64,000 nt of DNA from Methylococcales bacterium (GTDB taxonomy: Bacteria > Pseudomonadota > Gammaproteobacteria > JABHGC01): NCBI GenBank assembly GCA_018672285.1, contig JABHGC010000237.1:17883-81882 (forward strand), written 5' to 3'. Of this stretch, positions 27,405-53,500 are shown one piece after another. A program made the translations under genes and the position numbers. Every line of letters starts with the position of its first letter. Position 1 is the stretch's first letter. Below the pieces are notes generated by a model. The model had not been told where the DNA came from, searched no databases, and saw nothing but the letters and a program-made list of their open reading frames with translations.

Positions 27405-27621
27405 ACCAACCCCCGAGAGCTAACTGATTAATTGATTATCGGCAAGCCAGCCATGAACTTTAGAGTTAACCCCAGAAAGTTTGGGGTGGGTTAATCTGTT
27501 TATCTTGTTTTTACGCACCAAAATGAGGTGAAAATTTCTCTTTCCGTTCTGTTTTGGTGCAAGTTAAAGCTGTAAATATAGTCTATTGTTATATGAGACA
27601 AAAAATAATCAGGCTAATACT

Positions 27622-30600: not shown

Positions 30601-31098
30601 AGCGACCGTATTACTGATATTATTGAGGTCATTGATGGCATTGCATTTCAAACCAATTTATTAGCGCTCAATGCGTCGGTTGAAGCCGCTAGGGCAGGTG
30701 ATCAAGGCAAAGGTTTTGCGGTGGTTGCGACTGAAGTGCGTAATTTGGCATTGAGAAGTAAAACAGCCTCAAAAGAAATTGCGGATTTAATCAAAGAAAG
30801 TCGTGAAAATGTTGTTAATGGTGGGCGCCTGGTTGATGAGTTTGATCAGGTTCTAAATGGTATTATGCGGTCTGTGAATCAAGTGAATAAAATTAATTAT
30901 AGCGTTGCAGATGCCAGTAAAGAGCAACATAAAAGCATCAATGAAATGACGGAGCAGTTTGAGAAAATGGGGCAGACAACGGATGAGAATGCTTCTTTGG
31001 TAGGGCAAGTTGCCGTCAGTAGCAAAAAATTGGTGTCTAGTGCGATAACGTTGAGGGAGCAGATGGCCTTTTTTCAAATAGCGCCATCAGCAGTTTAA
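27622..31098 (+). CDS. ammonium transporter (Amt) fused to a tandem HAMP-like array and a methyl-accepting chemotaxis signalling domain
   Basis: ORF 27586..31098 (TTG); likely start ATG 27622 with signal peptide '[24 protein letters not shown]'. Amt signature '[14 protein letters not shown]...LGARIGRF'. Then about 5 repeated 50-aa modules ('GDFNHRIPV...', '[29 protein letters not shown]', '[29 protein letters not shown]', '[15 protein letters not shown]'). Then the MCP core '[34 protein letters not shown]'. Confidence 0.85.
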
Positions 31099-37187: not shown

Positions 37188-38636
37188 TCAAGCCGTAGGT
37201 ATGGCTAACTCTAAAGTAAGTTGGGTGCCATGTTGTTCTACTCCAGATACTAAATAGGGGCTACTCAGTTGGTAGCTTGCTTGAACCTTATCTGCTCGAT
37301 AGGACATATTGCTTAACCCTCTACCATCGTAGTCATTATCTGCTGTAAAACCGACACCATTATCCGATATTTGTACGATTATTTTACTGTCCTGTAGGTT
37401 ACAGCTTAAATTGAGGGTGTTTGCTTTACAGTGCTTCATGCTATTGGTCACAAATTCTTGTAAGATTCTCACCAGTTGTAAACGGGTGTCTGAGCTGTAG
37501 TGAATGTTATCTCCTGCTTGGTCCACTTGCCAGTTAAAGTGGATATTTTGTACCTCTAGCTGTGGCTCTATTCTGTTTCGGAACATACCAAGGCAGCTAT
37601 TTAAATCATCGGCAGTGCTATCGAGTGAGTCAATAATTAAGCGCAAATCCGTCATGCTTGCACGGACTGCCTGCTCTATATCTGCTCGGCTATAGTGATC
37701 ACAACTGACCATTGATAGGGTGGATATTAACAGGCCGCCAACACCATCATGCATGTCTCGCATAATACGCTCACGTTCTGCAGAAACCCCTTTTTCATGC
37801 TCTAAGGTGATGAGCTTTTTGAAAGAGGATTGAAGCTCATCATTGGCGGTCTCAAGTTCATTGGTGCGCTTTTGAACCTGTAGCTCTAAGTGGTTTTGAT
37901 AGTTTTTTAAGGAGCGTTCCGCTTGGTCTCTTTGCTGTAGGGTGTTATCAAACTTATCTAATAAATGATTGATGGTATCAATCAGCTCTCCAATCTCATT
38001 GTGTTTGTTTTTATCTAATATTTCAATGCGGGTGTTGTACGCGGTGCTGGGATCTATTTGAGAAATACGCTGAATGATTTTGATTAGCGGTAACGTTAAG
38101 GTGATGTAAAAGGCGACTAAAAACAGTAAGGCCAGTAAGGTGTTACGAATGAAGCCACTACCAAATACTATGGCTGCTCGATGGAGCAATTTATCAATTA
38201 ACACTAACTGACTGGCTTGGAGTTGTAGAATGCCAATTTTTTGCAGGCTTTCAGGGTCAATAATGGGGTGTTCGAATAGGATTGGGTTGAGATCTAAATA
38301 CGCTGAAAACCAATATTCAGTCGTTATGGGGTGTTGATGCTGGGCGATGGTGGCTTTGTGTTGGTCTATTACAGCCGCAGACTCGACTGCGGGGTGGTGA
38401 AATAATCCTTTTAATACCGCATTTGCTAAGCCTTCATCAACATCTAGAATCGCTCTGGTCAAAGGGGACTCAAACATGCTTAAAGCTTGGCTTAGGTCTT
38501 GTTTTAATTGTGTTTGTTCGTCAAATGCATCGTATATAATTTGGCTGGTGCTAATGAGTAAACCAAGGCATAGCGCCAGTAGCATGGTAATTTTGGCGTG
38601 TTGTAAGGCAAGTTTGCTTCTGAATGGGTGGTTCAT
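37188..38636 (-). CDS. sensor histidine kinase, HisKA_3 (NarX-like) family, with periplasmic sensor domain
   Basis: 482 aa, two TM helices flanking a ~150-aa periplasmic domain, coiled-coil linker, H-box 'ERERIMRDMHDGVGGLL', and HATPase_c with 'DNGVGF'. Confidence 0.85.
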   Translation of the reverse strand: MNHPFRSKLALQHAKITMLLALCLGLLISTSQIIYDAFDEQTQLKQDLSQALSMFESPLTRAILDVDEGLANAVLKGLFHHPAVESAAVIDQHKATIAQHQHPITTEYWFSAYLDLNPILFEHPIIDPESLQKIGILQLQASQLVLIDKLLHRAAIVFGSGFIRNTLLALLFLVAFYITLTLPLIKIIQRISQIDPSTAYNTRIEILDKNKHNEIGELIDTINHLLDKFDNTLQQRDQAERSLKNYQNHLELQVQKRTNELETANDELQSSFKKLITLEHEKGVSAERERIMRDMHDGVGGLLISTLSMVSCDHYSRADIEQAVRASMTDLRLIIDSLDSTADDLNSCLGMFRNRIEPQLEVQNIHFNWQVDQAGDNIHYSSDTRLQLVRILQEFVTNSMKHCKANTLNLSCNLQDSKIIVQISDNGVGFTADNDYDGRGLSNMSYRADKVQASYQLSSPYLVSGVEQHGTQLTLELAIPTA

Positions 38637-38650
38637 CTTTACCTTGTTGG

Positions 38651-40636
38651 TTAAATCCGATAACTAGACAGGCTGCTTTTTAGAAGGGTTAAGTTTTTAT
38701 ATTTGAGGTTTTCATCGAAGTGTTCTGTTAAAAAGGCTGTGAACTCATCTTCAGGTAGGGGTTTGCTGATGAAATATCCTTGAGCAATATCACAACCCAT
38801 GTCTAATAATTGCTGATAAATATCTTGAGATTCAATGCCCTCGGCAACAACAAGTAAACCTAAGTTATGGGCAAGGTCTACTGTTGAACGCACAATAGCT
38901 GCGTCATCCATATCCGTTGTCATATCACGAATAAAAGATTGGTCAATTTTTAACTCGCTCACGGGGAGCTTTTTCAGTCGGCTTAATGACGAGTAACCTG
39001 TGCCGAAATCATCAATGGATAGGTGGACGTCCATATCTCGGATAAGTGCTAATGTATCGGCTAAATTATCATAGTCAGACAAAAATAAATTTTCAGTGAT
39101 CTCAAACAACAGCTGATGTCGGAAAGGGTGGTTACTCAAGCTGTTTTTAATGGTTGAGATAAAGTCTTGGCTAACGAGTGTTTGGGTGGAGATGTTTACG
39201 GCAATTTTAATTTTAAACCCAATGTTATTCCAACACTGAATCTGTAGCAGTGCTTCTCTTATTGCCCAGTCGGTAAAGCGATTAATTAGCCCTGTTTGTT
39301 CTAAACAGGGGATAAATTGATCTGGGGGGGTCATGCCGTGGCCGTCTCGCGGCCATCTTGCGAGGGCTTCAACACCGATTAAAGTGCCTGTTTCTATATC
39401 GAGCTTGGGTTGGTAGTAAAGCGTAAATTCATTCTGGTCTAGTGCTTGGTGAAGGTCTGCGACTAAGGTGACTTTGAATAGTGATGATTGATCTTCATCA
39501 GGATTATAAATGCTGTAGCCACTTTTGCTACTTTTTGCATGATACATCGCGTGGTCAACATGGCTTAGTAAGGTATTGGTATCTTCTCCATGTTCTGGGT
39601 AGCTGGCAATGCCGATGCTGGCATGGATGGTGATTGGGGTTGCATCATCTGAATTTGCCTGTTTCAGTGCGAAAGGTGTATCGAGTAAGTTGAGTAATGA
39701 TTGTGCGTAACGTGATGCATCAGCGGAATCGGAGTCAGCTAAGATTAAGGTGAACTCATCACCGCCTAATCGACTGAACGTTTTATCTTGGTCGATAAAA
39801 GCAGATAGCCGTTTTGTGACTTTCTGTAGTAAAGCGTCGCCCTGGTCATGGCCTAAGGTGTCATTGACTTGCTTAAAGTCATTTAAGTCGATCAGTAAAA
39901 TGCTGAGGTCGTTATCTTGATGATCGGCATATTTGAGTTGTTGTGATAATCGGCCTTTGAAAAGTGACCGGTTAGGTAGTGCCGTTAAGGGGTCGTATAG
40001 GCTTAAGTGCTCAAGGCGTTGGTTGTTTGCAACGAGGCGTTTGTTGAGCCTCCCCATTCGCATTTGGTATTCGGCGTTGACTTTATTCGCCGTTTCGATT
40101 TCTTGCACCGTAAACGCATTCTCTATTGCGATAGCGACAATACTGGCAAACAAAGACAGTAAATTGAGGTCTCGACGGGTGAAGTCTCCACCACCTATTT
40201 TATTGATGCCAGCTATGCCACCTAAAAAATGCTTTGGCCCTTGTAGCGGCACGAGAATGATGGTGTTTGACTCTTTATTCCAGCGAGCTTTCTCTTCTTC
40301 GCTTAGCTCGTTAATGGTCTCTGACCACCACGCTTTTTTATGTGCCCAGACCCAACCACACACACCGTAGTCAATGGGCATCGTTTCACCGATGATGGTG
40401 TCCGCATCGTCGCCTGCACCTCCGCAATAGGTATAGGTGTTTGCATATTGGTCTAAGATGGGGATCAGTAGTGTTTTGGCTTGAACCAGTGTTTTAGCGC
40501 GATGTGCAACAATGTGATAGATCGACTCTAAATCTAGCTGACTGCCAATTTCGGTGAAGGTTTGCTGGAGCAGCTCAATTTCTTCTTCTGCATTAAAGAG
40601 TTGTTGTTCTAACTCGGGTGGTTCCATGCTGCTCAT
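38651..40636 (-). CDS. GAF-GGDEF-EAL c-di-GMP cyclase/phosphodiesterase
   Basis: 661 aa, N-terminal GAF, 'RLGGDEFTLIL' GGDEF motif, 'EALARW' EAL motif with downstream 'DDFGTGYSS'. Confidence 0.85.
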   Translation of the reverse strand: MSSMEPPELEQQLFNAEEEIELLQQTFTEIGSQLDLESIYHIVAHRAKTLVQAKTLLIPILDQYANTYTYCGGAGDDADTIIGETMPIDYGVCGWVWAHKKAWWSETINELSEEEKARWNKESNTIILVPLQGPKHFLGGIAGINKIGGGDFTRRDLNLLSLFASIVAIAIENAFTVQEIETANKVNAEYQMRMGRLNKRLVANNQRLEHLSLYDPLTALPNRSLFKGRLSQQLKYADHQDNDLSILLIDLNDFKQVNDTLGHDQGDALLQKVTKRLSAFIDQDKTFSRLGGDEFTLILADSDSADASRYAQSLLNLLDTPFALKQANSDDATPITIHASIGIASYPEHGEDTNTLLSHVDHAMYHAKSSKSGYSIYNPDEDQSSLFKVTLVADLHQALDQNEFTLYYQPKLDIETGTLIGVEALARWPRDGHGMTPPDQFIPCLEQTGLINRFTDWAIREALLQIQCWNNIGFKIKIAVNISTQTLVSQDFISTIKNSLSNHPFRHQLLFEITENLFLSDYDNLADTLALIRDMDVHLSIDDFGTGYSSLSRLKKLPVSELKIDQSFIRDMTTDMDDAAIVRSTVDLAHNLGLLVVAEGIESQDIYQQLLDMGCDIAQGYFISKPLPEDEFTAFLTEHFDENLKYKNLTLLKSSLSSYRI

Positions 40637-40695
40637 ACCATATAAGGAATAAAATACTTATATAGAGTATAGCTGAAAATTGTTATGCAGTGAGA

Positions 40696-40730
40696 TTGGC
40701 ACCAAAAACAGACAGGTGTTTGTTGGTGCC
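40696..40730 (-). terminator. hairpin immediately downstream of the DoxX gene (candidate operon terminator)
   Basis: tggcaccaaaaaca / tgtttgttggtgcca arms, about 14 bp with one bulge, 6-nt loop, 11 nt past the DoxX stop. No strong U-tract. Confidence 0.4.
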
Positions 40731-40740
40731 ATGAAGCAGC

Positions 40741-41388
40741 CTAGCTGTGGCCGTTGGTGATGTACCAATGTTGGGCAAAATAATACGCCACGCTGAGCAC
40801 TACGCCAACAACAATGGCATTGGTGTATTGACGATCTTTTATCCAGTAGTCCATGCTCACATACTTACCTGCGCCATAGAAGAATAAGGCGAACAGCATC
40901 ACCAGATAGGTTACGCCCAGTTCAATACCATTTTGAAGCATGTAAGGGCCTGACGTGTCGATACTGTAGAGTTGGTTGTACCAAATGGGGGCGTTACTTT
41001 CTAACCAGGTCATGAACCGGCCAAGGAGTTGTGCCGACTCTGTCGTGTCGGGTGCAATGGCATGCCAATGACCCCAGTGTACGGTGAATATAGCGACAAA
41101 CATTGTCACGATCAGTGGGATTGCAATCCATCTAACCGCGAAGCCTACTAATAATAATATGGCACCAATGACTTCGGTTGCGGTTGCTAAATAGGCCATT
41201 AACTCCGGGAACGGCAAGCCTAAACCATTTTTAAACTAGGTGACGATATGAGGGAAGTTATCTACTTTTTTTAAACCGGCCATTAAGAAAACAGGTACCA
41301 AGTATATTCTAATCGCCAATGGGGCGATAAAATCAAGCGATTTGGTTTTGTCTAGTAGTCGTTGTGCGCCTTCAAGAAGTCTCATCAT
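40741..41388 (-). pseudogene. DoxX-family membrane protein with an in-frame TAG stop at 41236..41238
   Basis: The ORF 40741..41217 lacks the N-terminal helix. The upstream in-frame 50 codons starting at ATG 41388 encode 'MMRLLEGAQRLLDKTKSLDFIAPLAIRIYLVPVFLMAGLKKVDNFPHIVT', then TAG, then 'FKNGLGLPFPELMAYLATATEVIGAILLLVGF...'. Together these make a complete DoxX fold. The gene is therefore interrupted, or mis-sequenced, or read through. Confidence 0.7.
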
Positions 41389-41492
41389 AAGTCAGTTCCA
41401 CCCTTTCTTAGTTGACTGGTAGGTTTAAATTTGAGTTTTAATCAGCAATATGGCTTTTTTAAGCCCGATATCACTGTCGTTTTACTATGACG

Positions 41493-42332
41493 TTATTTAC
41501 TGTGCTGAGTTCCCAAAACAATGCCTTCGTTTTGCAGTTGTTGCAGAATTTCTAAGCCACCAGCGATAACGGCATCGGGGTTTGGGTGCTGCATTTCTTC
41601 AGCAATTTGGGATAGGGCTGCATGTCCTGTTAACTCAGGGTTATCTTGGAGAATGGCTAAAAGCCGATCAGAAATGGGGTTTACTTCCATAAAGCCCACG
41701 GTTTGATCGTCATTTTGCCTGCGAAAAATGACAATGCAGGTCACTTGATCACCCGGGGTGTCCGGTAAAAAATCTTCACTAATATGATGAACCGGAAAAT
41801 GGTAAGCCAGTCTTTTTAGTAGCGGGTTAAGTGCAATTTGGCTCGCGAGTAAATCACCTTCAGTGTCAACAGAGTCTAGGGTAATTTCTTCTTCTGAGAG
41901 GTAAATCTCCATTTCGACCCATTCATAATGTGCAAGCTCTACGAGAAAAGGCGGGTCGTTTGGGTTGTCGCGGCCTTCTTGTAAGTAGCGCACAAACTCT
42001 TGACCAAAAACAGGGAATATAGGGGTGTGGCAACGGAAATTGCTGACAAAGTCCCGAACCATTGCATGCCACTCCTCAGCGGAGGTGATGTCATGGATGA
42101 CGGGGAAATTGTGAGCTAATAAATCCTCGATATTGTTATATACCACGCGCTGGTAAGCATTCATTCTGCGGGCTTCAATCCCCTCAGGGAGTGGCTTGTT
42201 TGCAGGGTCACGAATACAGTCGGTAAACTCAAACTGCTTTTGCATGAAAAGGGGGAGATCAGCTCGCGATGGCAGTGTGTTGTTCATCCTTGCTCCATTT
42301 TTTTTGTAATTTGGCAATATGGTTGACTTCAC
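41493..42332 (-). CDS. DUF2063-family protein (MbnC/BufC/HvfC-like partner of MNIO enzymes)
   Basis: 279-aa ORF with the DUF2063 N-terminal pattern ('FTDCIRDP...RMNAYQRVVYNNIEDLLAHNFPV...FVRYL'). The true start is probably the internal Met 'MNNTLPS', giving a 29-nt overlap with the upstream DUF692 gene. Confidence 0.8.
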   Translation of the reverse strand: MKSTILPNYKKNGARMNNTLPSRADLPLFMQKQFEFTDCIRDPANKPLPEGIEARRMNAYQRVVYNNIEDLLAHNFPVIHDITSAEEWHAMVRDFVSNFRCHTPIFPVFGQEFVRYLQEGRDNPNDPPFLVELAHYEWVEMEIYLSEEEITLDSVDTEGDLLASQIALNPLLKRLAYHFPVHHISEDFLPDTPGDQVTCIVIFRRQNDDQTVGFMEVNPISDRLLAILQDNPELTGHAALSQIAEEMQHPNPDAVIAGGLEILQQLQNEGIVLGTQHSK

Positions 42333-43110
42333 CTAAAAGCTCGTCCATTTCAGGGATGTCGTTATCTCGCTCTACCATGGTCGGCACAACGCCATATAGC
42401 TCGTATGTTTTTTCAAGTAATGCCCAAACACTGGGGAGTACTGCCGCGCCATGGGTATCAATCAGCAGGTCTTCTGCTTCTTTATAGTGGCCTGCAACGT
42501 GAATGTAACTGACGCGGTCGCCTGGCATGGCATTGATGAACTCGATGGCATCGTAACTATGGTTTTTGCTGTTCACATACACGTTATTAACGTCCAGCAG
42601 CATTTTGCAATCGGCTTCGCTGACAACGGCGTTAATAAATTCAATTTCAGACATTTCGCTATAAGGTTGTGCGTAATAGGAGGCATTTTCTATGGAAATG
42701 GTCATCTCCATCATATCTTGAACTTGGCGAATTCGGCTGGCAACGTGCTTGACAGATTCTTCAGTAAAAGGGATTGGCAGTAGGTCGTATAAATGACCGT
42801 CATCACTGCAAAAAGACAAATGCTCTGAGTAATGTAAAATATTGTGCTCATGAAAAAGTTTTTTGATCTCTTTAACAAGCAGGCTATCTATTGGTGTTGG
42901 TCCACCAAGTGATAGTGATAAGCCGTGAGCTATAAAAGGGTAACGCTCCGTAAAGTATCTAAAGTCTTTTCCTCGCTTGCCGCCAACGCCGATCCAGTTT
43001 TCAGGGGCGATTTCAAAAAAATCAATTTGGCTAGGAGGGGTTTCTTTAAAAGGGTCAATGAACTCTCGTTTAAAGCCGAGTCCTGCGCCACTTACGGGAA
43101 GTGAAGTCAT
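42259..43110 (-). CDS. DUF692/UPF0276 TIM-barrel protein, i.e. MNIO (multinuclear non-heme iron oxidative) enzyme, MbnB/BufB/HvfB-like
   Basis: 283 aa: 'GLGFKREFIDP...FFEIAPENW...YPFIAHGLSLSLGG...YSEHLSFC...DLLPIPFTEESVKHVASRIRQVQDMMEMTISIENASYY' matches the DUF692 core. Confidence 0.85.
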   Translation of the reverse strand: MTSLPVSGAGLGFKREFIDPFKETPPSQIDFFEIAPENWIGVGGKRGKDFRYFTERYPFIAHGLSLSLGGPTPIDSLLVKEIKKLFHEHNILHYSEHLSFCSDDGHLYDLLPIPFTEESVKHVASRIRQVQDMMEMTISIENASYYAQPYSEMSEIEFINAVVSEADCKMLLDVNNVYVNSKNHSYDAIEFINAMPGDRVSYIHVAGHYKEAEDLLIDTHGAAVLPSVWALLEKTYELYGVVPTMVERDNDIPEMDELLGEVNHIAKLQKKWSKDEQHTAIAS

Positions 43111-43135
43111 GTCGCTATGCCTTTTTGTTAGGTAT

Positions 43136-43163
43136 AAAAAAAGCGCGATGCGAGTAATCGCAC
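43136..43163 (-). terminator. intrinsic terminator/attenuator between the precursor gene and the MNIO gene
   Basis: On the minus-strand RNA: gugcgau-uacucgc-aucgcgc (7-bp stem, one G-U) followed by U7 (plus-strand A7 at 43136-43142). It lies 27 nt after the precursor stop and 26 nt before the DUF692 start. Confidence 0.55.
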
Positions 43164-43189
43164 CACGCTTATCGGTAGTCTAGCGCTAA

Positions 43190-43621
43190 TTATTTTTTAG
43201 AGCCACAAGAACCTGCACCGCAAGAACCTGTTTTACCTTTGTCGCCACAAGAGCCCGCTTTGCCTTTGTCGCCACAAGAACCGGCTTTAGCTTTGTCGCC
43301 ACAAGATGCCGCTTTTCCTTTGTCTCCACAAGAGCCCGCTTTCGCTTTGTCACCACAAGATGCAGCTTTGCCTTTATCGCCACAAGAGCCCGCTTTTGCT
43401 TTATCACCACAAGATGCTGCTTTTGCTTTGTCGCCACAAGATGCAGCTTTACCTTTGTCGCCGCAAGAACCTGCGCCGCAACTACCGTTACCAGCTACTT
43501 TGTAGCCATCTGCTAAAGGTGATACTGCAAATGGGTTGCTATCGGCAGAAACTGAAGTCATTGCTACTGATGATACGAATGCTGCGCCGATTGCTACTGA
43601 TAAAGTTTTTTTGTTAGACAT
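43190..43621 (-). CDS. Sec-secreted repetitive Cys/Lys/Gly-rich precursor peptide, 12 x 'SCG', 9-aa repeats SCGDK(G/A)KA(A/G); candidate RiPP (bufferin/HvfA-like) substrate
   Basis: 143 aa. Signal peptide 'MSNKKTLSVAIGAAFVSSVAMTSVSA', then 'DSNPFAVSPLADGYKVAGNG', then SCGAGSCGDKGKAASCGDKAKAASCGDKAKAGSCGDKGKAASCGDKAKAGSCGDKGKAASCGDKAKAGSCGDKGKAGSCGDKGKTGSCGAGSCGSKK. RBS GGAG upstream. First gene of the operon. Confidence 0.75.
   Translation of the reverse strand: MSNKKTLSVAIGAAFVSSVAMTSVSADSNPFAVSPLADGYKVAGNGSCGAGSCGDKGKAASCGDKAKAASCGDKAKAGSCGDKGKAASCGDKAKAGSCGDKGKAASCGDKAKAGSCGDKGKAGSCGDKGKTGSCGAGSCGSKK
43199..43480 (-). repeat. tandem 27-nt coding repeats, about 10 units, encoding the SCGDKxKAx motif
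   Basis: Visible as reiterated 'tcgccacaaga(g/t)cc(c/g)gctt(t/c)(t/g)cctttg' units. They generate three spurious overlapping ORFs on both strands (43186..43437, 43239..43505, 43306..43617). Confidence 0.85.
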
Positions 43622-44040
43622 AAATATGTTTGCTCCACATTATAAAAGGTTACTCATTTCTGAGTGGTTAATTAAATCGTCATGATTTGCAGTTATGACC
43701 AAGGCTTTTGTTGTAAAGTTCACTAAGCCTTAAAAATATTCCGTAGAAAATATAAAATAACTCGGTAGGTAATTGTTTTACCTGTATTATATTCTAAAGT
43801 CGAATCTTTCTCGTTCGCAGTAAGTATAGTGAACATTTGGTTTAAGTGAAGAGGCTTATGTTCTATTGCTAAATGCGAGCTTCTGCTTCACCGGTTTATT
43901 CATCTGGGCGGCTTTAGGTTGTTAAACATTTTAGGATATTACTGTCATATAAGTTTAATGCCCTACAATTTGTCATTAAAGTTTTAGCTCCCGATGCCGC
44001 CAGTAGGTACATAAAACAAAAAACGATTAAATCTCTCTGG

Positions 44041-47000
44041 GTGCAAACTGTGCGATCAAAAAAACTGAAACAGACGATAAAGTCCGTGCTTGGGGCGCGT
44101 TGGGTTATTCCTGTAACGCTCGTAACATTGCCTCAAGCTTCAAATGCTGAGCTAACGGGCGAGAGTATTATCTCTGGTAGTGCGATCTTCTCAAGGCCCG
44201 ATGCTAACACTACGATTATTACTCAATCCTCCGACAAGCTGATCATTAATTTCGACAGCTTTTCGATTGGCAGTAATGAAACGGTTCGTTTTATTCAACC
44301 CAGTGCTTCGTCCATTGCGCTTAACCGAGTGCTAGGTGGTAGTGCCAGTAACATTTTGGGTCAACTCTCAGCCAATGGCAGCATTTTTCTGGTGAACGCC
44401 GGTGGTATCTTCATTGCACCCACAGCGGCAATAGATGTCTCCAGTGTTATCGCCACAACTCTCGATATTGCCAACCAAGATTTTCTCAATAACACCTTTC
44501 AATTCTCCAAAGTCGCAGGATCCAGTTTCGGTAAAGTTATCAGCGAAGGTGAGATCAGTGTTGCCGATGGTGGTTATGTTGTACTCGCCGGGGACTATGT
44601 AGAGAACAGCGGTATTATCCAGGCCAAGCTAGGGGACGTAGCGCTAGCCTCAGGCAACCGAATTTCACTCGATTTAAGTGGTGATGGACTGATTCAATTT
44701 GCCGTTGACCAAGCGGCGGTAGATGCGTTAGCAGGCGTGAATAACGTCGGTCAAATCACAGCCAATGGCGGTAACGTCGTAATGACCGCCAAGGTGGCCA
44801 ATGACCTAGCTTCCACCGTGGTACAAAACAGCGGCATCATTAGTGCAGAAAGCATTGCTGAAGTGAATGGAGAAATTTTCCTCTCAGGCTCAGGCGGGGA
44901 CGTGATTAATGAAGGTCAATTGGTTGCCAGCAGTACAGAAACCCATGGTGGAACGGTCATTGTTCAATCGGACAGCACGACCTTAGTCGAAGGCAGTGGT
45001 TCAATTGATGTCAGCTCAGTGAATGGTACCGGTGGGCAAGTACAAGTTTTAGGCGAACGAGTTGGTTTATTCGACCAAGCCAATATATCAGCCTCAGGCG
45101 CATTAGGTGGTGGTGAAGTGTTGATCGGTGGCGACCAAGCCGGTCTTAATCCAGATATTCAGAATGCCAAGCGCACAGCGATTACCTCAGAGATCACAAT
45201 CACAGCGGATGCTATACAAAGCGGTAATGGCGGCAAAGTGATTGTGTGGGCGGATGAGAATACCCATTTTGAAGGTAATATCAGCGTTAAAGGTGGGCAA
45301 CAATCTGGTGATGGTGGCTTTGTAGAGGTCTCGGGTAAACAGAATTTATTCTTTGATGGCACTGTCAATACTTTTGCAACGAATGGTCAACAAGGGACGT
45401 TATTGTTGGATCCATTAGATATAACCATTGTAGATGGTGCGGGTGGTGCAAATGATGCAGAGCTTGCTGATGACAGTATTTTGTTTGCTGATGGTGGTGC
45501 CGTTACCTTTACCATTGCCGAGCAAACACTGGAAGCGGTTACGGGTAATGTCATTTTACAAGCTGATAATTCCATCACGGTGAATGACTTAACGGATAAT
45601 ACGTTAGATTTTATTGGTCTCACAAGTGGTAATACCATCGTTTTTCAAGCCGGTGGTAATATCTTTTTTGCTGGAGCCGATGATACGCTGGATACGAACA
45701 ATGCTGATCTTCACATTGAAGGTAGCTCGGTTCATGGTACAACAGGTACAGCAAATACATCACCTAGATCCGTTTTTTCGGGTACAGGTGATATGACCTT
45801 TTTAGGCTTTCAAATTTTTTCAGATGGTGGCACCTTTACAGGGAACAATATTAATTTTGGTGCGGGTACCACAGCCGGTGCGGCTGGAAACTTTGTAGGC
45901 GGTGTTGCTGCGTTAAGTGAGAATATCATTATTTCTGGCGCGACCACCATTAATGCCAGTGGTACCGTTAATTTTGACGTGAATAACAGTTTTCAGTTAT
46001 CTGCACCTCTGACGGTAATCGCTGTTGGTGATATCAATGTCAATGGCCTGATTGTTGATAGTGTAGGGGGCGGCGCAAGTTCACCTTTACTGATGGCATC
46101 AACGACAGGCAGTATTACGATTAGTGCTGACATGCAGTCATCTAATGGAAATGCATTTGCCTTAGATGCCGCCAATAATCTTACAGTACAATTTATTAAG
46201 TCAGGTGGTACTCCAGCGGCCTTTACATCTAATTTAGACGCGGGTGGTTTGCTGAATGTTAATGCGTTTAATGCCGTGGGTGGTAGCTTGGATGCGCTCA
46301 GTGGCGGATTATTAACCATTAATAGCGCTCTGGTGACGAATGGCGGTAATGTTAGTTTGAATTCTGGTGGTGGCATATTACTCAATACAGGTTTCGATAC
46401 GGGGGGTGGTTTTTTTACTGCAAACTCAACGAATAATAATATTACTTTTACAGCTGCAAACAGTGATACGGGGGGGGGCGGAACATTCAGCGCAACCGCG
46501 ACGGGTACTGGCTCGATTAGTATTCCTGCTGGTGCCAACATCAGCACCAATAACGGCAGTTTTTCAGCAGTCGCAAATATTGGTGATGTATCGATTAGTG
46601 GTTTGACCAATGCAGGCACCGGTAATATTACCGTTGCGACCACGACCGGGGATCTATTTTTACTGGGCGGATTAAGCACTTCTGGTGGTTTTATTGATAT
46701 CGATATTGTTAATAGTGGTGATATTACCGTGGGTAACACCAATACCACGGGTGGCGGTGTGTTTGACTCGCGGATTGCGAATACTGGCAATATTTTATTT
46801 CAGTCTGGTACAGGTATCGCCACCAGTGGCGGCAATATACTCGCGCTCCAGCTTGGCTCTGGTAATGTGACTAACGATGGTACACTAAATGCATTAGCGG
46901 GTGGCGTACAGCTTGCAACAACGGCAGGAACCGTGACTTCAAGCAGTACAGTTAATGCGGGGGATTTTACCGCAACAGCACAAACCTTAGTCGACTTGCA

Positions 47001-50000
47001 AGCGGGCTTCACATCTAACGGCACAACAACGATCATAACTGCATCTACTGGTAATGTGATTCTTGCGGGTGGTGTCACCTTCACCAATGCCGGGGGTAAT
47101 AACGTCACCATTAATGCTGTGACCGATATTGATATTAATGCCAGCTTTACCACCACAGGTAGCGGCCCTATTGATTTTACTGCAACAAACACGGGTGGAA
47201 CGGCTTCGGTCGAGACACTAACCCTTAGTACCGGCACATTGCTTAATACTAATGGAGGTTCGGTCAATTTATCTGAAACAGGCAGTGGCGATTTAAGAGT
47301 AACGGGTGTTGGTGTGAGTACAGTCGCAGGTGCGTTTACAGCATCAACAGTTGCAGGGCTGATAACCAATGACACCACGATTGAGACAAGTAATGGAGGC
47401 GGTGGTGGCCTACTAACATTGTCCTCGACGGGGGTTGGAGCAATCACCTCTACTGGTTTTTTACAGGGCGGTGGCATTGTGGTCTCAAATGCTGGGAATG
47501 TATTGATTTCGAATAATATCAGTCAGGCGAATGATATTAGTGTCAGTGGCAGTAATGTTGTTTTAAGTGGCTTTACGACCGATGGAAATGCCACCATTAG
47601 TGCAACAGATCAAGTTACTTTAAGCAATGCTTACCAGTTTAATAATGGTGCAGTGAAAACATTCGCCACAAACGCAACTAACACCGTGAGTTTTGCTGCA
47701 GGGGCTAATATTTTAGCAAGCGGTTCACCGTTAAATTTTTCAGTTAATAGTACAAATGGCGATGTGCAGCTAAATGGTACTAGCATTAACTTAGCAACAG
47801 GAACATTAAGTATCACCTCGGGTGCATTAGTTGATATTAACTCTGCCCTAAGTAATTTGGGTGGTTTGTCTGCTGTTGCCGCTTCAGATATTAGCTTGAA
47901 CAGTAATGTGACGACCAGTGCTGGTAATATCGATTTGACGGTGACAGGTGCTGCCAATATCAATGTGGGTACTTCGAGTATAGATACGGCAGGGGGTACA
48001 CTAACCCTATCATCTGCAGGGGGCTTGAATGTTAATTCCAGCCTATCGGTAACGAATGCAGGGTTAACGACGTTGCAACTGACAGGTAATACCGATGCCG
48101 ACAGCCTCGTGAATCTAGGTACAATTAATACCAATGCTGGTGATTTGCTGCTGAAAACAAATACGGGTAATCAATCAGTCACATTGGGTGCACTGAGTGG
48201 TAATAATCTGACTTTATTTTCAAATGTAATGACTTTTTCAGGTGGTGCAAACTCAATTAGTGGCACAGGGATATTAGATATTAAGCCACGTTTTACAGCA
48301 GCAAATGCAACCATTGATATCGGCACTGTTGCTGGCGGAACAGGCAAACTGGTGGTGGATACCGCGGCACTCGCTGATGGATTTAGTAGCATTACTATCG
48401 GTCTCTCGGACGGTGATACAGCTGTAAAGCTTGGTGATGCAACCTTTAATGACCCAACTTTGATACGTGCGCCACTGGGTGCTGGTAGTATTACGGTTAA
48501 CGGTACCATTACGCTGAATAATAATGGCAATGTTGATTTTCAAACGGTAGGCCCAACATTAATTTTGGGTGGCTCGCTCACCTCTGCTGGCACCGATATT
48601 ACCATAACGGATGATTTGCAGATCAATGCGCCATTTACCTTTAGTTCAGGGGTTGGTGCTGGGAATATCAGCTTAAGTACCATCGATACCGCAGGCACAC
48701 CTATAGCATTAACCTTTGAGGCCGGTACAGGGAATGTCGTTGTGGGTAATGTGGGTGCGAGTATTCAACCTGACTCCTTTACCGTGACCAGTGCGAATAC
48801 GGTGACAGCGCAACAAATTAATACATCGGGTGATGTTAATATCAATGCTTCAACGATTAATTTGCAAGGCGTAGTGATTGCGGCGGGCAACTTTACTGCT
48901 TCTGGCAATATCAATTTATCCTCCAGCGTCACTGCTGACCTAGGGATTACGCAATCAGCAGGATCATTAGCCGTGTCAGGTTCACTAACACTCACCTCAA
49001 ATGGTGCTGGTACGTCGGGTATATCTTTAAATGATATTGATGGCGCCGGGAGTTTGAATTTATTGTCACTCGGGCCTGCACAAGTCGGTATCGTTGGCGG
49101 AACAACACAATTGACGTCGTTTTTTACCGATGTTGCCGGCAGTATTACGACAGGTAGTATTTCAACTCAAGGAAGTGCCACATTAATAAGTGATGTGGAC
49201 ATTAATATCGCATCATCTATCACCTCTCAGGGTGGTAACGTCATCATTGAAAGCCTGGGGGGAGTGAACCAAAGTGCAGGAACGGTGCAGTCAGTCAATG
49301 GTGGCGTGAGGGTTGCAGGTTCTAATGTTTTGTTATCGGGTAACGTGATAGGTGGTAGCAATACCTTTAGTAACGCTTCAGGAATAGGTGCTATTTTAAT
49401 TGAAAGCACATCTGCACTGACGGTGAATAATCTGACAGCCAATGCGGCTGATAACTTGAATATTGTCCTGGATGCAACAGACATCACGATTAATGGTTTT
49501 GTGGCCAGTAATGGTGACACGATTTTGGTGGCGACGAATGATGTGAATGTGAACCAGTCGGTCAGAATTTCCGCAAATTCAAATAGCTCAGTTGAGGGCA
49601 GTGTGCTGATCCAGGCAGACAGCGATGCCAATGGCGTGGGCAGCCTTAACGCAATATCAGGCTCTGAAATTAAAGGGTTTGACATAACTATCTCGGCAGC
49701 TGAAGTGAATACGACAGGGTCAACAGTACTTGCGTTGTCAGGTTCCCCCACGATTACGTTGACTGCCGCTCCACAAGACCCAGCTGCGGACGCCGCTGCT
49801 GCTGCAGCGGAAGATGCTGCGACAGATGCCGTTGCGACCACAACAACGGATACAACCACAACAACAACGACAACAACCAGTACGGGTGGTGGCTTTGATA
49901 ATACCGCTAGTGCGCCAGCGCCTGATACAGCGGCAGAGACTGGGACGACTACAACAACGGATACCGCAACCGGAGATACAAGTACAGCGACGACATCTGA

Positions 50001-50352
50001 TGGCGGGGCAGACACGGGAACAACAGACGGCGCGACAGCGGATAGTGGCACAGCTGCACCAGCAGACGACACGGCGACAACAGAACCTGCAGCAGATTCA
50101 GGCACAGAAGCACCCGCAGAAGAAACCGCAGCAACAGCAGATGAGCCAGCAAAAGCAGACGCCGATGCCACTCCTGAAGAAGCGGTTGCAGAAGAAGGGG
50201 GAGCCGAGGAAGAAGCAGTAGCAGAAGAAGGTACCGAAGAGACGAAAGAAGACGTTGTAGCGGCCACGGAAGAAGAAGCGCCTCTAGAAGAGCAGCCGCT
50301 GATTGCGGTTGCTGATGCGGGAGATGGTAGTGGTCAGGCCTGCACGCCTTAG
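44041..50352 (+). CDS. TpsA-type large exoprotein (filamentous-haemagglutinin-like, TPS secretion domain plus beta-helical repeats plus acidic Thr/Ala-rich tail)
   Basis: 2103 aa, GTG start. Extended signal peptide, TPS domain 'NFDSFSIGSNETVRFIQPSASSIALNRVLGGSASNILGQLSANGSIFLVNAGGIFI', a long Gly/Thr/Asn/Ser-rich repetitive body, and a C-terminal acidic low-complexity region ending 'EEQPLIAVADAGDGSGQACTP'. Confidence 0.8.
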   Translation: MQTVRSKKLKQTIKSVLGARWVIPVTLVTLPQASNAELTGESIISGSAIFSRPDANTTIITQSSDKLIINFDSFSIGSNETVRFIQPSASSIALNRVLGGSASNILGQLSANGSIFLVNAGGIFIAPTAAIDVSSVIATTLDIANQDFLNNTFQFSKVAGSSFGKVISEGEISVADGGYVVLAGDYVENSGIIQAKLGDVALASGNRISLDLSGDGLIQFAVDQAAVDALAGVNNVGQITANGGNVVMTAKVANDLASTVVQNSGIISAESIAEVNGEIFLSGSGGDVINEGQLVASSTETHGGTVIVQSDSTTLVEGSGSIDVSSVNGTGGQVQVLGERVGLFDQANISASGALGGGEVLIGGDQAGLNPDIQNAKRTAITSEITITADAIQSGNGGKVIVWADENTHFEGNISVKGGQQSGDGGFVEVSGKQNLFFDGTVNTFATNGQQGTLLLDPLDITIVDGAGGANDAELADDSILFADGGAVTFTIAEQTLEAVTGNVILQADNSITVNDLTDNTLDFIGLTSGNTIVFQAGGNIFFAGADDTLDTNNADLHIEGSSVHGTTGTANTSPRSVFSGTGDMTFLGFQIFSDGGTFTGNNINFGAGTTAGAAGNFVGGVAALSENIIISGATTINASGTVNFDVNNSFQLSAPLTVIAVGDINVNGLIVDSVGGGASSPLLMASTTGSITISADMQSSNGNAFALDAANNLTVQFIKSGGTPAAFTSNLDAGGLLNVNAFNAVGGSLDALSGGLLTINSALVTNGGNVSLNSGGGILLNTGFDTGGGFFTANSTNNNITFTAANSDTGGGGTFSATATGTGSISIPAGANISTNNGSFSAVANIGDVSISGLTNAGTGNITVATTTGDLFLLGGLSTSGGFIDIDIVNSGDITVGNTNTTGGGVFDSRIANTGNILFQSGTGIATSGGNILALQLGSGNVTNDGTLNALAGGVQLATTAGTVTSSSTVNAGDFTATAQTLVDLQAGFTSNGTTTIITASTGNVILAGGVTFTNAGGNNVTINAVTDIDINASFTTTGSGPIDFTATNTGGTASVETLTLSTGTLLNTNGGSVNLSETGSGDLRVTGVGVSTVAGAFTASTVAGLITNDTTIETSNGGGGGLLTLSSTGVGAITSTGFLQGGGIVVSNAGNVLISNNISQANDISVSGSNVVLSGFTTDGNATISATDQVTLSNAYQFNNGAVKTFATNATNTVSFAAGANILASGSPLNFSVNSTNGDVQLNGTSINLATGTLSITSGALVDINSALSNLGGLSAVAASDISLNSNVTTSAGNIDLTVTGAANINVGTSSIDTAGGTLTLSSAGGLNVNSSLSVTNAGLTTLQLTGNTDADSLVNLGTINTNAGDLLLKTNTGNQSVTLGALSGNNLTLFSNVMTFSGGANSISGTGILDIKPRFTAANATIDIGTVAGGTGKLVVDTAALADGFSSITIGLSDGDTAVKLGDATFNDPTLIRAPLGAGSITVNGTITLNNNGNVDFQTVGPTLILGGSLTSAGTDITITDDLQINAPFTFSSGVGAGNISLSTIDTAGTPIALTFEAGTGNVVVGNVGASIQPDSFTVTSANTVTAQQINTSGDVNINASTINLQGVVIAAGNFTASGNINLSSSVTADLGITQSAGSLAVSGSLTLTSNGAGTSGISLNDIDGAGSLNLLSLGPAQVGIVGGTTQLTSFFTDVAGSITTGSISTQGSATLISDVDINIASSITSQGGNVIIESLGGVNQSAGTVQSVNGGVRVAGSNVLLSGNVIGGSNTFSNASGIGAILIESTSALTVNNLTANAADNLNIVLDATDITINGFVASNGDTILVATNDVNVNQSVRISANSNSSVEGSVLIQADSDANGVGSLNAISGSEIKGFDITISAAEVNTTGSTVLALSGSPTITLTAAPQDPAADAAAAAAEDAATDAVATTTTDTTTTTTTTTSTGGGFDNTASAPAPDTAAETGTTTTTDTATGDTSTATTSDGGADTGTTDGATADSGTAAPADDTATTEPAADSGTEAPAEETAATADEPAKADADATPEEAVAEEGGAEEEAVAEEGTEETKEDVVAATEEEAPLEEQPLIAVADAGDGSGQACTP
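46470..46478 (+). repeat. G9 homopolymer inside TpsA-1 (in frame as sequenced)
   Basis: 'gatacgggggggggcgg' encodes TGGGG. Confidence 0.9.
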
Positions 50353-50506: not shown

Positions 50507-53500
50507 GTGCTGATTGTGCGATCAATGGAATTGAAACAGACAATACGGTCTGTGTTGGATGCTCGTTGGGTGTTGCCTGCAACGTTAGCCGCGTTACCGC
50601 AAGTCGCGAGTGCTGAGCTAACAGGCGAGAGTATTATCTCTGGTAGCGCGACTTTCTCAAGGCCAGATGCTAACACCACGGTGATTACCCAATCTTCAGA
50701 TAAACTGGTGATTAATTTCGATAGTTTCTCTATTGGAAGCAATGAAACAGTTCGTTTTATTCAGCCCAGTTCATCCTCTATTGCGTTAAACCGAGTGATT
50801 GGGGGCAGTGCCAGTAATATCTTTGGTCAGTTATCTGCCAATGGCAGTATTTTTCTCATTAATGCCGGTGGCATCTTCATTGCACCCTCCGCAAAGATCG
50901 ATGTGTCCAGTGTGATTGCGACCACTTTAGACATCGCCAATCAAGACTTCCTCAGTAATAAGTTCGAGTTTTCTAAAGTGAATGGTTCGGCCTTAGGTAA
51001 GGTTGTGAACGAAGGTAATATCCAAGTTGCTGAGCGGGGTTTTGCAGTGCTTGCGGGTGACTACACCGAGAATAGTGGCATTATCCAAGCCAAATTAGGC
51101 TCTGTGGCATTGGCCTCAGGCAGCCGGGTGTCGTTGGATTTAGCCGGTGATGGTTTAATTCAGTTTTCTGTGGATGAAGCCAGTGTTGATGCATTATCAG
51201 GTGTCAGCAACGTCGGCCAGATCACCGCCCTTGGTGGCAATGTGGTGATGACCGCTAAGGTGGCGAATGATTTAGCCTCCACAGTGGTGCAAAACAGCGG
51301 CATCATCAGTGCAGAAAGCATTGTTGAGCGTGATGGCAGTATCTTTTTATCGGGTTCAGGTGGAGATGTCATTAACGATGGCCAATTATCTGTGGTGAGC
51401 CGCTCTGAAGTGAATGGCGGAACGGTCATTGTTCAATCAGACAGTACAACCCTAATCGAAGGCAGTGGTTCAATTGACGCCAGCTCATTGAGTGGCGCGG
51501 GCGGACAAGTACAAGTACTCGGTGAGCGAGTGGGGTTGTTTGATCAAGCCAGTGTTTTGGCTTCTGGTGCGCTGGGAGGTGGAGAAATATTGGTTGGTGG
51601 AGACCAAGCTGGTCTTAACCCAGATATTCAAAATGCAAAACGCACAGCGATCACCTCAGAAACAACCCTTAATGCGGATGCGACACAAAGCGGCAATGGG
51701 GGAAAAGTCATTGTCTGGGCCGATGAGAATACTCAGTTTGAAGGGAATATTAGCGTTAAAGGTGGGCAGATCTCTGGTGATGGCGGTTTTGTTGAGGTCT
51801 CAGGAAAAGACAATTTACTTTTTGCCGGGCAGGTTGATACAGGTAGTGTGAATGGCGACATTGGGACGGTACTACTTGACCCTGCCGACATTACGATTAC
51901 TGATGGGGCTACAGCGGGAAGTTTAGATGGTGTCAATGTCGTTGCCTTTGCGGATGCCCCTGCAGGTAACGAGACAATATCAGAGGCTTCACTAGAAGGG
52001 TTGGTTGGGAATATTGTCCTGCAAGCCGATAATTCAATCACCATCAATGATTTGTCGGATAACGAGTTGGCATTGAATGTTGGTGTCGGCAATACCGTTA
52101 TCTTTCAAGCGGGTGGTAATATCGCTTTTCTTGGTGCGGATGATACGCTTACTTCAAATGGTGGCAACATACAAATTGAAGGCAGCTCTATTCATGGCAC
52201 AACATCTAATGCCAATACAAGCGTTCATTCGCTAAATGCAGGTGCCGGAGATATACGAATATTGGGCTTCAATGTATTTTTAGGGGGCGGTACGATAACC
52301 GGTAATATCATTGACGTAGGTTCCTTTGTCAGTGGTGGTAATGCGGGTGATTTTGGGGTAGGTTCTGCTGTCGTTACGAGTAATCAAGTGTTTGTCAGTC
52401 AAGCAACAACGATTAATGGCAATGTAGGTGGTTCGAGCTTGGTTGATTTTGATTCAACGGGGAGTTTGCAGTTGGATGCTGCATTAACCGTGAATTCAAC
52501 CAATGACATTACGGTGACGAGTTCAGCGGTTGATAGTCTTGGGGGGGGGGCAGTTTCACCTTTAAATCTGACATCAACCGCAGGAAGCATCACCATTAAT
52601 GCGGATTTACAGTCATCTAGTGGTAATGCGTTTACCTTAGATGCTGCAAGCAATATTACGACACAATTTATTAAGTCAGGGGGGTCGCCGGTGGCCTTTT
52701 TGTCTAATTTAACGGCAGGAAATTTATTAACCATTAATAATTTCAATGCGACAGAGGGGAGTTTAACCGCTATTAGTGGTGGCCTGACGACGGTCAATGG
52801 GTCATTCATCACGAATGGTGGTGATGTTAATATCACTTCAAATGGTGGTGTGTTAATTACGACCAATATGGATACAGCCGCTGGTGATATATCGATCACG
52901 AATTCGACGGTAGGCCTGATTAATTTCAATCCTGGATTTAGCACCACATCAGGTAATGTTACTCTCACAAACAATGCGAATGTCGCTGCTGGTGTGCAAA
53001 GTGGGTTTATTGATTTTGGCAGTGACATTACAACTGACAGTGGTAACGTCACAATTCAGGCGTTGGGTGATGGTAATGTGTTCATTCCTACGTTTGTAAC
53101 GAATACAGGTGATTTTGCCATATCGGCTACTTCAGGGAGTATCCTGTTTGATGGTCAAGGTAGTGGCACCAACCTATCTGGTAGTGGCAATTTCTCCGCA
53201 TCCACCGTATCGGGTGACATCACTTTTACAGCACCAATAACCGCCGTGAGTGGCAGTAGCTTGAGCATCAATAGTGGCGGCTCCATTAACATGAGTGGTG
53301 CGGTTAATACGAATGGGGGTAGTTTTAGCGCAAGTGGCCTTAATGCTGTCTTTTTGAGTACGACGTTTAATACCAGTGGTGGTGATTTTAGCGTTTTGGC
53401 AACGAATGGCAATATGGATCTTATTGGGCCTCAGGTAAGTACTTCAGGTGGCAATATCGTATTAACATCGCAAGGCAGTGGGTTTGTTCATACTGACAGT

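Follow-up and report, generated by a model that had tools for sequence, protein, structure and literature searches.

The locus and its gene families

The window analysed here is a stretch of 64,000 nucleotides (contig JABHGC010000237.1, positions 17,883 to 81,882 of the forward strand; GenBank assembly GCA_018672285.1) from an uncultured gammaproteobacterium labelled Methylococcales by NCBI, in which four co-directional minus-strand reading frames span 40741–43621 and probably constitute a four-gene Hvf-type ‘captophorin’ operon for a ribosomally synthesised and post-translationally modified peptide (RiPP). The frames encode, in order of transcription, a Sec-signal precursor, a multinuclear non-haem iron oxidase (MNIO), a DUF2063 partner and a DoxX-family protein, and are accompanied by the following features, numbered from the first letter of the window:

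43693–43722, minus strand: putative extracytoplasmic function (ECF)-sigma-type promoter (TGAACTT, 16 nt, GTCATAA), ∼100 nt 5′ of the precursor ATG
43190–43621, minus strand: hvfA-like precursor, 143 aa (open reading frame (ORF), N-terminal profile match)
43134–43170, minus strand: intrinsic terminator/attenuator hairpin with U7, between the precursor and the MNIO gene
42259–43110, minus strand: hvfB, MNIO (DUF692) maturase, 283 aa (NF003818)
41493–42287, minus strand: hvfC, PME1 partner, 264 aa (NF050145, PF09836, PF22106)
40741–41388, minus strand: hvfX (DoxX family), with an in-frame amber codon at 41236–41238 (NF050144 on conceptual read-through)
40697–40731, minus strand: hairpin 3′ of hvfX, 9 + 5 bp, without a U tract (folding z = −2.8)

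The original prediction, made from the DNA without database searches, had described four co-directional minus-strand genes with overlapping DUF692 and DUF2063 genes, and both points are borne out by the ORFs: the gap between the precursor and MNIO genes is 79 nt, hvfC shares 29 nt with hvfB when its start is placed at ATG 42287, the one that public gene calls use, and 104 nt separate hvfC from the DoxX frame. The profile searches proposed with that prediction return PF05114 (MbnB_TglH_ChrH) on HvfB at E 1.9e-101; the DUF2063 N-domain PF09836 (7.5e-22) and the NGO1945_C, RiPP recognition element (RRE)-like C-domain PF22106 (1.4e-24) on HvfC; and DoxX on HvfX at E 5.9e-23. Measured against the curated NCBIfam equivalog cut-offs (HvfB 360, HvfC 142, HvfX 80, BufB 310 and MbnB 325 bits), HvfB scores 413.9 bits on NF003818, HvfC 279 bits on NF050145 and HvfX 182.8 bits on NF050144, all three in excess of their cut-offs, HvfX via read-through only. 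The E-values of these enzyme and accessory genes (2.9e-124, 3.7e-83 and 5.3e-54) place the gene set well beyond chance, and the predicted MNIO-plus-partner RiPP metallophore operon is thereby specified, on NCBIfam scores, as one of HvfABCX type. A bufferin identity was rejected on the BufB score of HvfB (270.6 bits, under the cut-off) and the lack of a DUF2282 match, and a methanobactin identity on an MbnB score far under its cut-off (42.8 bits) and on the partner being DUF2063. The same gene order is found in a sister lineage and in ∼70 related loci.

A Ser-Cys-Gly repeat precursor

The precursor carries a Sec-type signal peptide of approximately residues 1–26, ending ...SVSA before DS, and so begins with MSNKKTLSVAIGAAFVSSVAMTSVSA as far as the signal-peptide boundary and with DSNPFAVSPLADGYKVAGNG beyond it; a recognition-like segment, NPFAVSPLADGY, follows the signal peptide. 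The claim of twelve SCG motifs and a 9-aa repeat is confirmed exactly: the core comprises an SCGAGSCG doublet, nine 9-residue units of the form SCGDK(G/A)K(A/T)(A/G) and a final SCGAGSCGSKK. At the DNA level the repeat has a 27-nt period of 9.2 copies (Tandem Repeats Finder score 279), outscored by super-periods of 54 nt (score 321) and 81 nt. The protein is distinctive in having Ser-Cys at 12/12 sites and an acidic residue at −3 at none of them, with Lys preceding 0/12 Cys and Glu or any other acidic residue at −3 in 0/12. The sequence is the same in 5/5 compared contigs and was not found in exact form in a collection of 15 billion proteins; SCGDK-type strings in the literature occur in unrelated papers only, and the supplements of PMC12452194 contain none. 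AlphaFold2 modelling from a 30-sequence alignment (predicted local distance difference test score 46) predicts disorder without secondary structure, and a beta-helix of the kind described for 17-residue EGKCG repeats is thus unsupported by the model.

Two negative statements about the precursor in the original prediction stand, in that there is neither an EGKCG pentapeptide nor a Pfam match to the DUF2282 bufferin fold; the further proposal that it may represent an uncharacterised substrate class is not supported. A profile built from 60 non-redundant precursors that are encoded beside HvfB homologues, using only their Cys-free N-termini and excluding the clade of the window, finds the precursor among 582 window ORFs at 51.3 bits (E 2.6e-15), the second-best ORF reaching E 0.17, and the segment common to family and window consists of the signal peptide followed by NPF, x5, L, x2 and GY. 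A protein search yielded 46 precursor relatives, many with EGSCGDKAK repeats that end in the canonical EGKCGEGKCG, one of which carries the NCBI name ‘HvfA family’ and some of which (P0001, P0007, P0008, P0030 and P0037) pass the curated model NF050137. The precursors encoded 5′ of the 80 closest HvfB genome homologues are very varied, and singlet repeats of 9–11 residues are common among them (for example, EGKCGGDKDA, EAKCGADKAK and EGSCGGKAEK). Because its N-terminus is homologous, its relatives grade into EGKCG peptides and GSCG sites are converted in NgoA of Neisseria gonorrhoeae, the precursor is assigned by sequence comparison to the Hvf/‘captophorin’ class as a divergent member by descent, rather than to a new substrate class.

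An unrelated low-complexity or collagen-like secreted protein, transcribed separately from an MNIO pair that acts on some other substrate, is a highly improbable explanation of the same ORF. It draws on a borderline Pfam Collagen score (27.7 bits versus a cut-off of 27.2) and weak matches to NCBIfam adhesin models (∼28–30 bits), together with the strong hairpin-U7 that stands between the precursor and hvfB. The borderline Collagen score, however, reflects the 9 = 3 × 3 periodicity; the triplets are interrupted, with Gly not at every third residue and Ala often in its place, there is no Pro, and the adhesin scores of about 29 bits lie far below cut-offs of 300–500, so that both identities were rejected as artefacts of periodicity. 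The match of the N-terminus to an MNIO-linked precursor profile and the gene order kept in the sister lineage and the ∼70 related loci likewise oppose a separate origin, as does the position of the U tract, only 30 nt from the hvfB start with no promoter-like site found there.

The HvfB maturase and its residue 250

The nearest solved structure to HvfB is the Histophilus somni MNIO 3BWW (E 2.2e-77). In an alignment of 86 sequences, made up of window HvfB and 85 homologues drawn from genome and metagenome loci, H62, H97, E141, D173, N176, H204, H208, D218, H220, E247 and D249 are invariant in 86/86. By comparison with MbnB and with the mutagenesis of HvfB (bioRxiv 10.64898/2026.07.17.739211), we take these residues to correspond to the iron ligands, and D249 corresponds to the catalytic base Asp249 of FonB, the MNIO of the fontiphorin system (PMC13097082). 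Loss of the iron ligands had been named beforehand as an outcome that would overturn the prediction; in the alignment all metal-ligand positions and Asp249 are intact. An MNIO with its ligands and catalytic Asp, an adjacent PME1 and an adjoining Cys-rich Sec-type precursor, the genes by which the captophorin class is recognised, are accordingly all present.

The enzyme departs from its relatives at the residue next to the catalytic Asp. Window HvfB reads GLGFKR...ERDND, giving Lys14, Arg15, Asp249 and Asn250, and lacks the Phe at the FonB-250 position that is a feature of the Lys-Cys group of MNIOs (PMC13097082). Position 250 is Phe in 84/85 related loci and Tyr in the other, Asn being confined to the window among the 86 aligned sequences, and Phe in 117/120 best metagenome-wide hits, the three others being window HvfB, which has Asn, P0048, which has Asn at 75% identity to it, and P0049, which has His at 74% identity. 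In FonB, Arg15 and Arg16 grip the substrate Glu, and Phe250 makes contact with the residue that precedes Cys and with the Gly that follows, and has been shown to govern tolerance at the former; Cys-Lys enzymes carry Asp at this position (PMC13097082). Lys14, the counterpart of FonB Arg15, occurs in 40/120 hits and for that reason was not retained as a candidate second change in specificity.

The P0049 locus of the sister lineage (L093, L094 and L095) shares with the window the A-B-C-X order and a very similar precursor, ...ESNPFAVTPLGDGYKVAAGG-SCGAGSCG-(SCGDKK[DG]KSG)n-SCGAGSCGAKK, and a partial precursor beside P0048 has GSCGENKDKA repeats. The length of the sister precursor differs by sample, 175 aa at L093:5393–5920 and 195 aa at L094:5333–5920, and the two extra 10-aa SCGDKKxKSG units constitute repeat copy-number variation. 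When metagenomes were scanned for members of the clade, the sister locus already found (L097 = L094) was the only one recovered; the scan also surfaced a distant Holophagaceae/Geothrix MNIO clade, 37–41% identical and under the HvfB and BufB cut-offs, in which ERDNH is invariant in 120/120 proteins and the precursors are mostly (D/E)GSCGKDKK with a different N-terminus. The loci of this distant clade (L099–L103 and L105–L108, including G. oryzae AP027079.1) mostly contain a YceI-family gene, and several contain an ECF sigma/anti-sigma pair.

Grouped by residue 250, the precursors have the following composition:

Residue 250 = F, 59 loci: Lys-Cys 80%, Ser-Cys 10%, acidic at −3 92%
Residue 250 = N or H, 10 loci: Lys-Cys 0–6%, Ser-Cys 72–80%, acidic at −3 7–42% (window: 0)

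For the window and its two sisters alone, Ser-Cys accounts for 80–100% of sites and an acidic residue at −3 for 0–7%. These figures invite the reading, which we consider possible though rather unlikely, that a distinct ‘Ser-Cys’ subclass exists in which the change from Phe250 to Asn or His re-tunes the active site of HvfB for Glu-free SCG repeats, the product perhaps differing from EGKCG captophorins in site selection, metal stoichiometry or metal preference with its ring chemistry unchanged. Stated more broadly, and just as tentatively, there may be a ‘Ser-Cys’ specificity branch of thiooxazole-forming MNIOs with a third recognition code beside Lys-Cys (Phe) and Cys-Lys (Asp), Phe having been replaced convergently by Asn or His in the gammaproteobacterial clade and by Asn in the large Holophagaceae clade, each with Ser-Cys-Gly precursors; precursors of the window’s clade almost entirely lack the Glu that Arg16 of Lys-Cys enzymes grips. 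The restriction of N, N or H at position 250 to the window and two sisters, in a set of 85 genome loci and the 120 top-scoring metagenome hits, the composition of their precursors, the ERDNH clade with its (D/E)GSCGKDKK precursors and the role of Phe250 in FonB all favour such a branch. The covariation between residue 250 and Ser-Cys, though suggestive, nevertheless rests on two independent events only, which makes the correlation weak once phylogeny is allowed for; F250 enzymes also occur beside mostly Ser-Cys precursors (L039, L055, L074 and L090–L092), NgoB modifies GSCG with both RR and F250, and Lys14 is common in the family.

An interrupted hvfX

The DoxX-family fourth gene of the original prediction stands in its family match and its direction, but its reading frame is broken by an in-frame TAG at 41236–41238 (HIVT*FKNGLGLPF) that had been overlooked, and the frame appears in the mechanical ORF list as two pieces, of 50 aa and 158 aa. 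When the TAG is read as W, the conceptual product matches 165/165 positions of NF050144. The TAG recurs in three contigs from other assemblies, which are 99.99–100% identical to the window, and the gene calls of a fourth (JGI) assembly are likewise split (50 aa + 152 aa). Because it is found again in other assemblies, the TAG is not a read error; its recurrence tells nothing about selection. The sister lineage, whose hvfX is intact at 212 aa, has Trp at the site (NIVMWFDKG), and homologues have Trp in 25/27 and Tyr in 2/27, a comparison by which the lesion is a single TGG-to-TAG transition at a conserved Trp. Amber is an ordinary stop here, since hvfX itself ends in TAG, and the intactness of the remaining frame suggests that the loss is recent.

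The interruption raises the prospect of a decaying, non-functional locus in which the nonsense codon reflects relaxed selection and the peptide is no longer usefully made or modified, a prospect that we regard as improbable. A stop at a conserved Trp in four assemblies (the fourth via its split gene calls) would fit it, as would the frameshift that a second window gene carries at a G8 run in its GH19 chitinase domain; yet no lesion interrupts hvfA, hvfB or hvfC, all catalytic positions are conserved, and the rest of hvfX remains in frame with a full-length hidden Markov model (HMM) match, so that the lesion appears recent. HvfX/DoxX is, moreover, not needed for Cys modification in the systems studied (PMC11252979; PMC13097082), and neither fon nor many of the related loci include DoxX.

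Predicted expression elements

The intrinsic hairpin with U7 that had been reported between the precursor and enzyme genes was found at 43170–43134, with a 13-bp G+C-rich stem and a 4-nt loop, 20 nt past the precursor stop and 30 nt ahead of the hvfB start; the 85-nt intergenic stretch has a minimum free energy of −25.8 kcal/mol (z = −3.5, with 0/200 shuffles as good). The sister locus L093 has a 14-bp stem with U8, of unrelated sequence, in the same place, and a terminator-like hairpin occupies the corresponding place in 15/67 related loci. In the sister lineage, on this comparison, the terminator is conserved in position and not in sequence. Because a scan of the gap between hairpin and hvfB found no promoter-like site, we infer partial termination, giving a high ratio of precursor to enzyme. 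The hairpin previously noted after doxX is also present; having no U tract, it is not a canonical intrinsic terminator, and the terminator scan missed it.

Upstream of the precursor, TGAAC(T/C)TT, 16 nt and GTCATAA (43722–43693) form the only well-conserved block between the window and L093, where the form is GAACCTT-N-GTCATAA, and the block resembles an ECF-sigma promoter, to which it is putatively assigned. A stricter pattern misses the window; the looser GAAC-N17-19-GTC lies 5′ of 22/73 family precursors versus ∼3 expected, although 5–6 of the 22 are at or inside start codons and the true figure is nearer 16/73. ECF sigma/anti-sigma pairs adjoin related precursors at L088 and L107. At L088:2695–4441, a stand-alone SCG-rich precursor (P0007, with EGSCGEKDG repeats) comes right after genes for an ECF sigma factor and a DUF3379 anti-sigma factor, with no MNIO within 4 kb. 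An Rfam scan of 40400–44200 gave no match, and neither did a megablast of the operon against plasmids.

Comparison with characterised systems

The closest overall likeness is to HvfABCX of nontypeable Haemophilus influenzae (NTHi; PMC11252979), which comprises the same four gene families, those over the HvfB, HvfC and HvfX cut-offs in the window, and which has a Sec-signal precursor with repeated x-Cys-Gly; by analogy, a −4 Da Cys modification that binds Cu(I) would be expected. The two differ in gene order (A-B-C-X in the window; hvfX ahead of hvfA in NTHi), in the core (a Glu-free SCGDKxKxx core with 12 Cys, in which most sites are single and spaced by 9 aa, as opposed to three AEGKCGEGKCG doublets), in HvfB position 250 (Asn in the window, Phe in NTHi) and in the nonsense codon of hvfX, and the precursor N-terminus of the window is FonA-like (NPF...GY), not HvfA-like. 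Fontiphorin FonABC of Fontimonas thermophila, which works without DoxX (PMC13097082), shares the MNIO, the PME1 and a Cys-rich signal-peptide precursor, FonA having the F-x5-L-x2-GY N-terminal segment of the window precursor and FonB a catalytic Asp249 of identical numbering; FonB has Arg15/Arg16 and Phe250 where the window has Lys14/Arg15 and Asn250, and FonA is a Lys-Cys EGKCG peptide, unlike the Ser-Cys precursor of the window. Gonophorin NgoABCX of N. gonorrhoeae (PMC13097082) provides a direct precedent for Ser-Cys-Gly sites in ∼10-aa repeats, with three (Q/E)GSCGASKSA repeats in NgoA and conversion of 7/7 Cys to 5-thiooxazole, but NgoA keeps Glu at −3 and EGKCGEGKCG end doublets and NgoB keeps Phe250, none of which is found in the window.

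Bufferins (BufABC; DUF2282 or Buf_6/12Cys; PMC12452194) belong to the same MNIO sequence mega-cluster and likewise combine a PME1 partner, frequent DoxX and Sec export with thiooxazole chemistry and protection from Cu stress (PMC12452194), whereas the window enzyme fails the BufB cut-off (270.6 vs 310) and its precursor has neither the DUF2282 fold nor a Cys-Lys motif. Methanobactin MbnABC is alike in its MNIO-superfamily four-electron oxidation of Cys to a Cu-binding heterocycle and unlike in its enzyme (42.8 vs 325 bits for the window on MbnB) and in its partner, MbnC in place of DUF2063; MbnA has a leader in place of a Sec signal, and the product is an oxazolone/thioamide.

Predicted chemistry and mechanism

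HvfBC, FonBC and NgoBC install Cu-binding 5-thiooxazoles (PMC11252979; PMC13097082; bioRxiv 10.64898/2026.06.05.730506), a structure re-assigned from oxazolone/thioamide (bioRxiv 10.64898/2026.06.05.730506), and the oxazolone/thioamide heterocycle of the original prediction is therefore outdated, 5-thiooxazole now being the expected product of this enzyme branch. All seven Cys of NgoA are modified and alkylated, including three GSCG sites (PMC13097082, supplementary information), and for FonBC the residue that precedes Cys may be Ala, Arg or Thr and Glu1 may be replaced by Ala, with a small residue required after Cys (PMC13097082). Judged on sequence, the SCG sites of the window satisfy these tolerance rules.

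By analogy with these characterised homologues, the precursor would be translated with its Sec signal peptide and bound ahead of export by an HvfB–HvfC heterodimer, HvfC serving as the DUF2063/RRE partner. HvfB, as a multinuclear non-haem iron oxidase using O2, would carry out a four-electron oxidation of each SCG Cys to a 5-thiooxazole, closing the ring with the preceding Ser carbonyl at −4 Da per site and at up to 12 sites; the modified, largely disordered Lys-rich repeat protein would then be exported to the periplasm, where pairs of thiooxazoles may bind Cu(I). A single promoter 5′ of hvfA, probably ECF-sigma dependent, would drive the operon, with the hairpin-U7 past hvfA stopping most transcripts, so that precursor would exceed enzyme, and read-through transcripts yielding hvfB and hvfC, presumably translationally coupled via their 29-nt overlap. 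The attenuator and promoter roles, like the thiooxazole chemistry and Cu binding, are carried over from those homologues. The nonsense mutation would have knocked out hvfX in the population, and its product would be dispensable for modification.

Several observations weigh against an Hvf-type captophorin operon. The precursor matches neither curated HvfA model, NF050188 (equivalog, cut-off 95 bits) nor NF050137 (‘KCGExKCG_twice’, 19.5 bits), even at E ≤ 10, a failure attributable to the missing EGKCG motif. Turnover by FonBC was sensitive to Glu6 in its model substrate (PMC13097082), and the window precursor has no Glu at −3; with Asn250 in HvfB, specificity and conceivably outcome could differ. 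Transcription might stop entirely at the hairpin, in which case expression of hvfBC would be poor; the ECF promoter is drawn from a loose motif, and the broken hvfX could signal decay of the locus. No copper-homeostasis gene was found among the neighbours of the operon, and the Hvf assignment is itself one of sequence comparison and homologues. The scores of the enzymes, their intact catalytic residues and the homology of the precursor N-terminus nonetheless make an Hvf-type operon the probable reading.

The kind of operon is already described, and nothing about this example is unusual beyond the repeat motif, a single enzyme residue and the broken fourth gene; it is one among >24,000 catalogued MNIO-PME1 loci and opens no new field. 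Current precursor HMMs (NF050188, NF050137 and the Buf_EGKCG type) miss Glu-free Ser-Cys precursors, and for that reason such peptides stay ‘hypothetical’ or are dropped as low complexity. An Asn250 HvfB with an all-Ser-Cys substrate offers a natural test case for the FonB enzyme–substrate code (Arg15/Arg16/Phe250), and a natural hvfX knockout beside an intact sister locus could help to define the contribution of DoxX. Should the host truly belong to the Methylococcales, a peptide that binds Cu(I) in the periplasm could be relevant to the way in which the group handles copper.

Genomic context

NCBI labels identical proteins ‘MAG: Methylococcales bacterium’ (MBT5231975.1 and MBT7445176.1), and among species-representative genomes the best match to HvfB reaches only 63% identity. 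The neighbouring genes encode two TPS-domain exoproteins, a GAF-GGDEF-EAL protein, a histidine kinase, a CheX-like protein and a NarL-type regulator. The exoproteins are in tandem on the plus strand (44041–50352 and 50507–54745; 2103 and 1412 aa), divergent from the hvf operon and with near-identical N-termini, the first ending in a long acidic Thr/Ala/Glu-rich tail. Past the operon, in the region 37188–40636 (minus strand), the histidine kinase is 57% identical to the kinase at L093:8400–9827, directly after the sister hvfX; in the window the GAF-GGDEF-EAL gene sits between hvfX and the kinase. This kinase was considered as a dedicated regulator and set aside, since general synteny explains its conservation in the sister lineage equally well.

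Further from the operon, a GH18 chitinase with a C-terminal GH19 domain (31174–34099, minus strand) is frameshifted inside GH19 at the G8 run 31709–31716. Misassembly of the homopolymer, phase variation and decay to a pseudogene are all possible causes. An unusual 1170-aa fusion at 27586–31098 (plus strand) joins an ammonium transporter domain to HAMP repeats and a methyl-accepting chemotaxis signalling domain.

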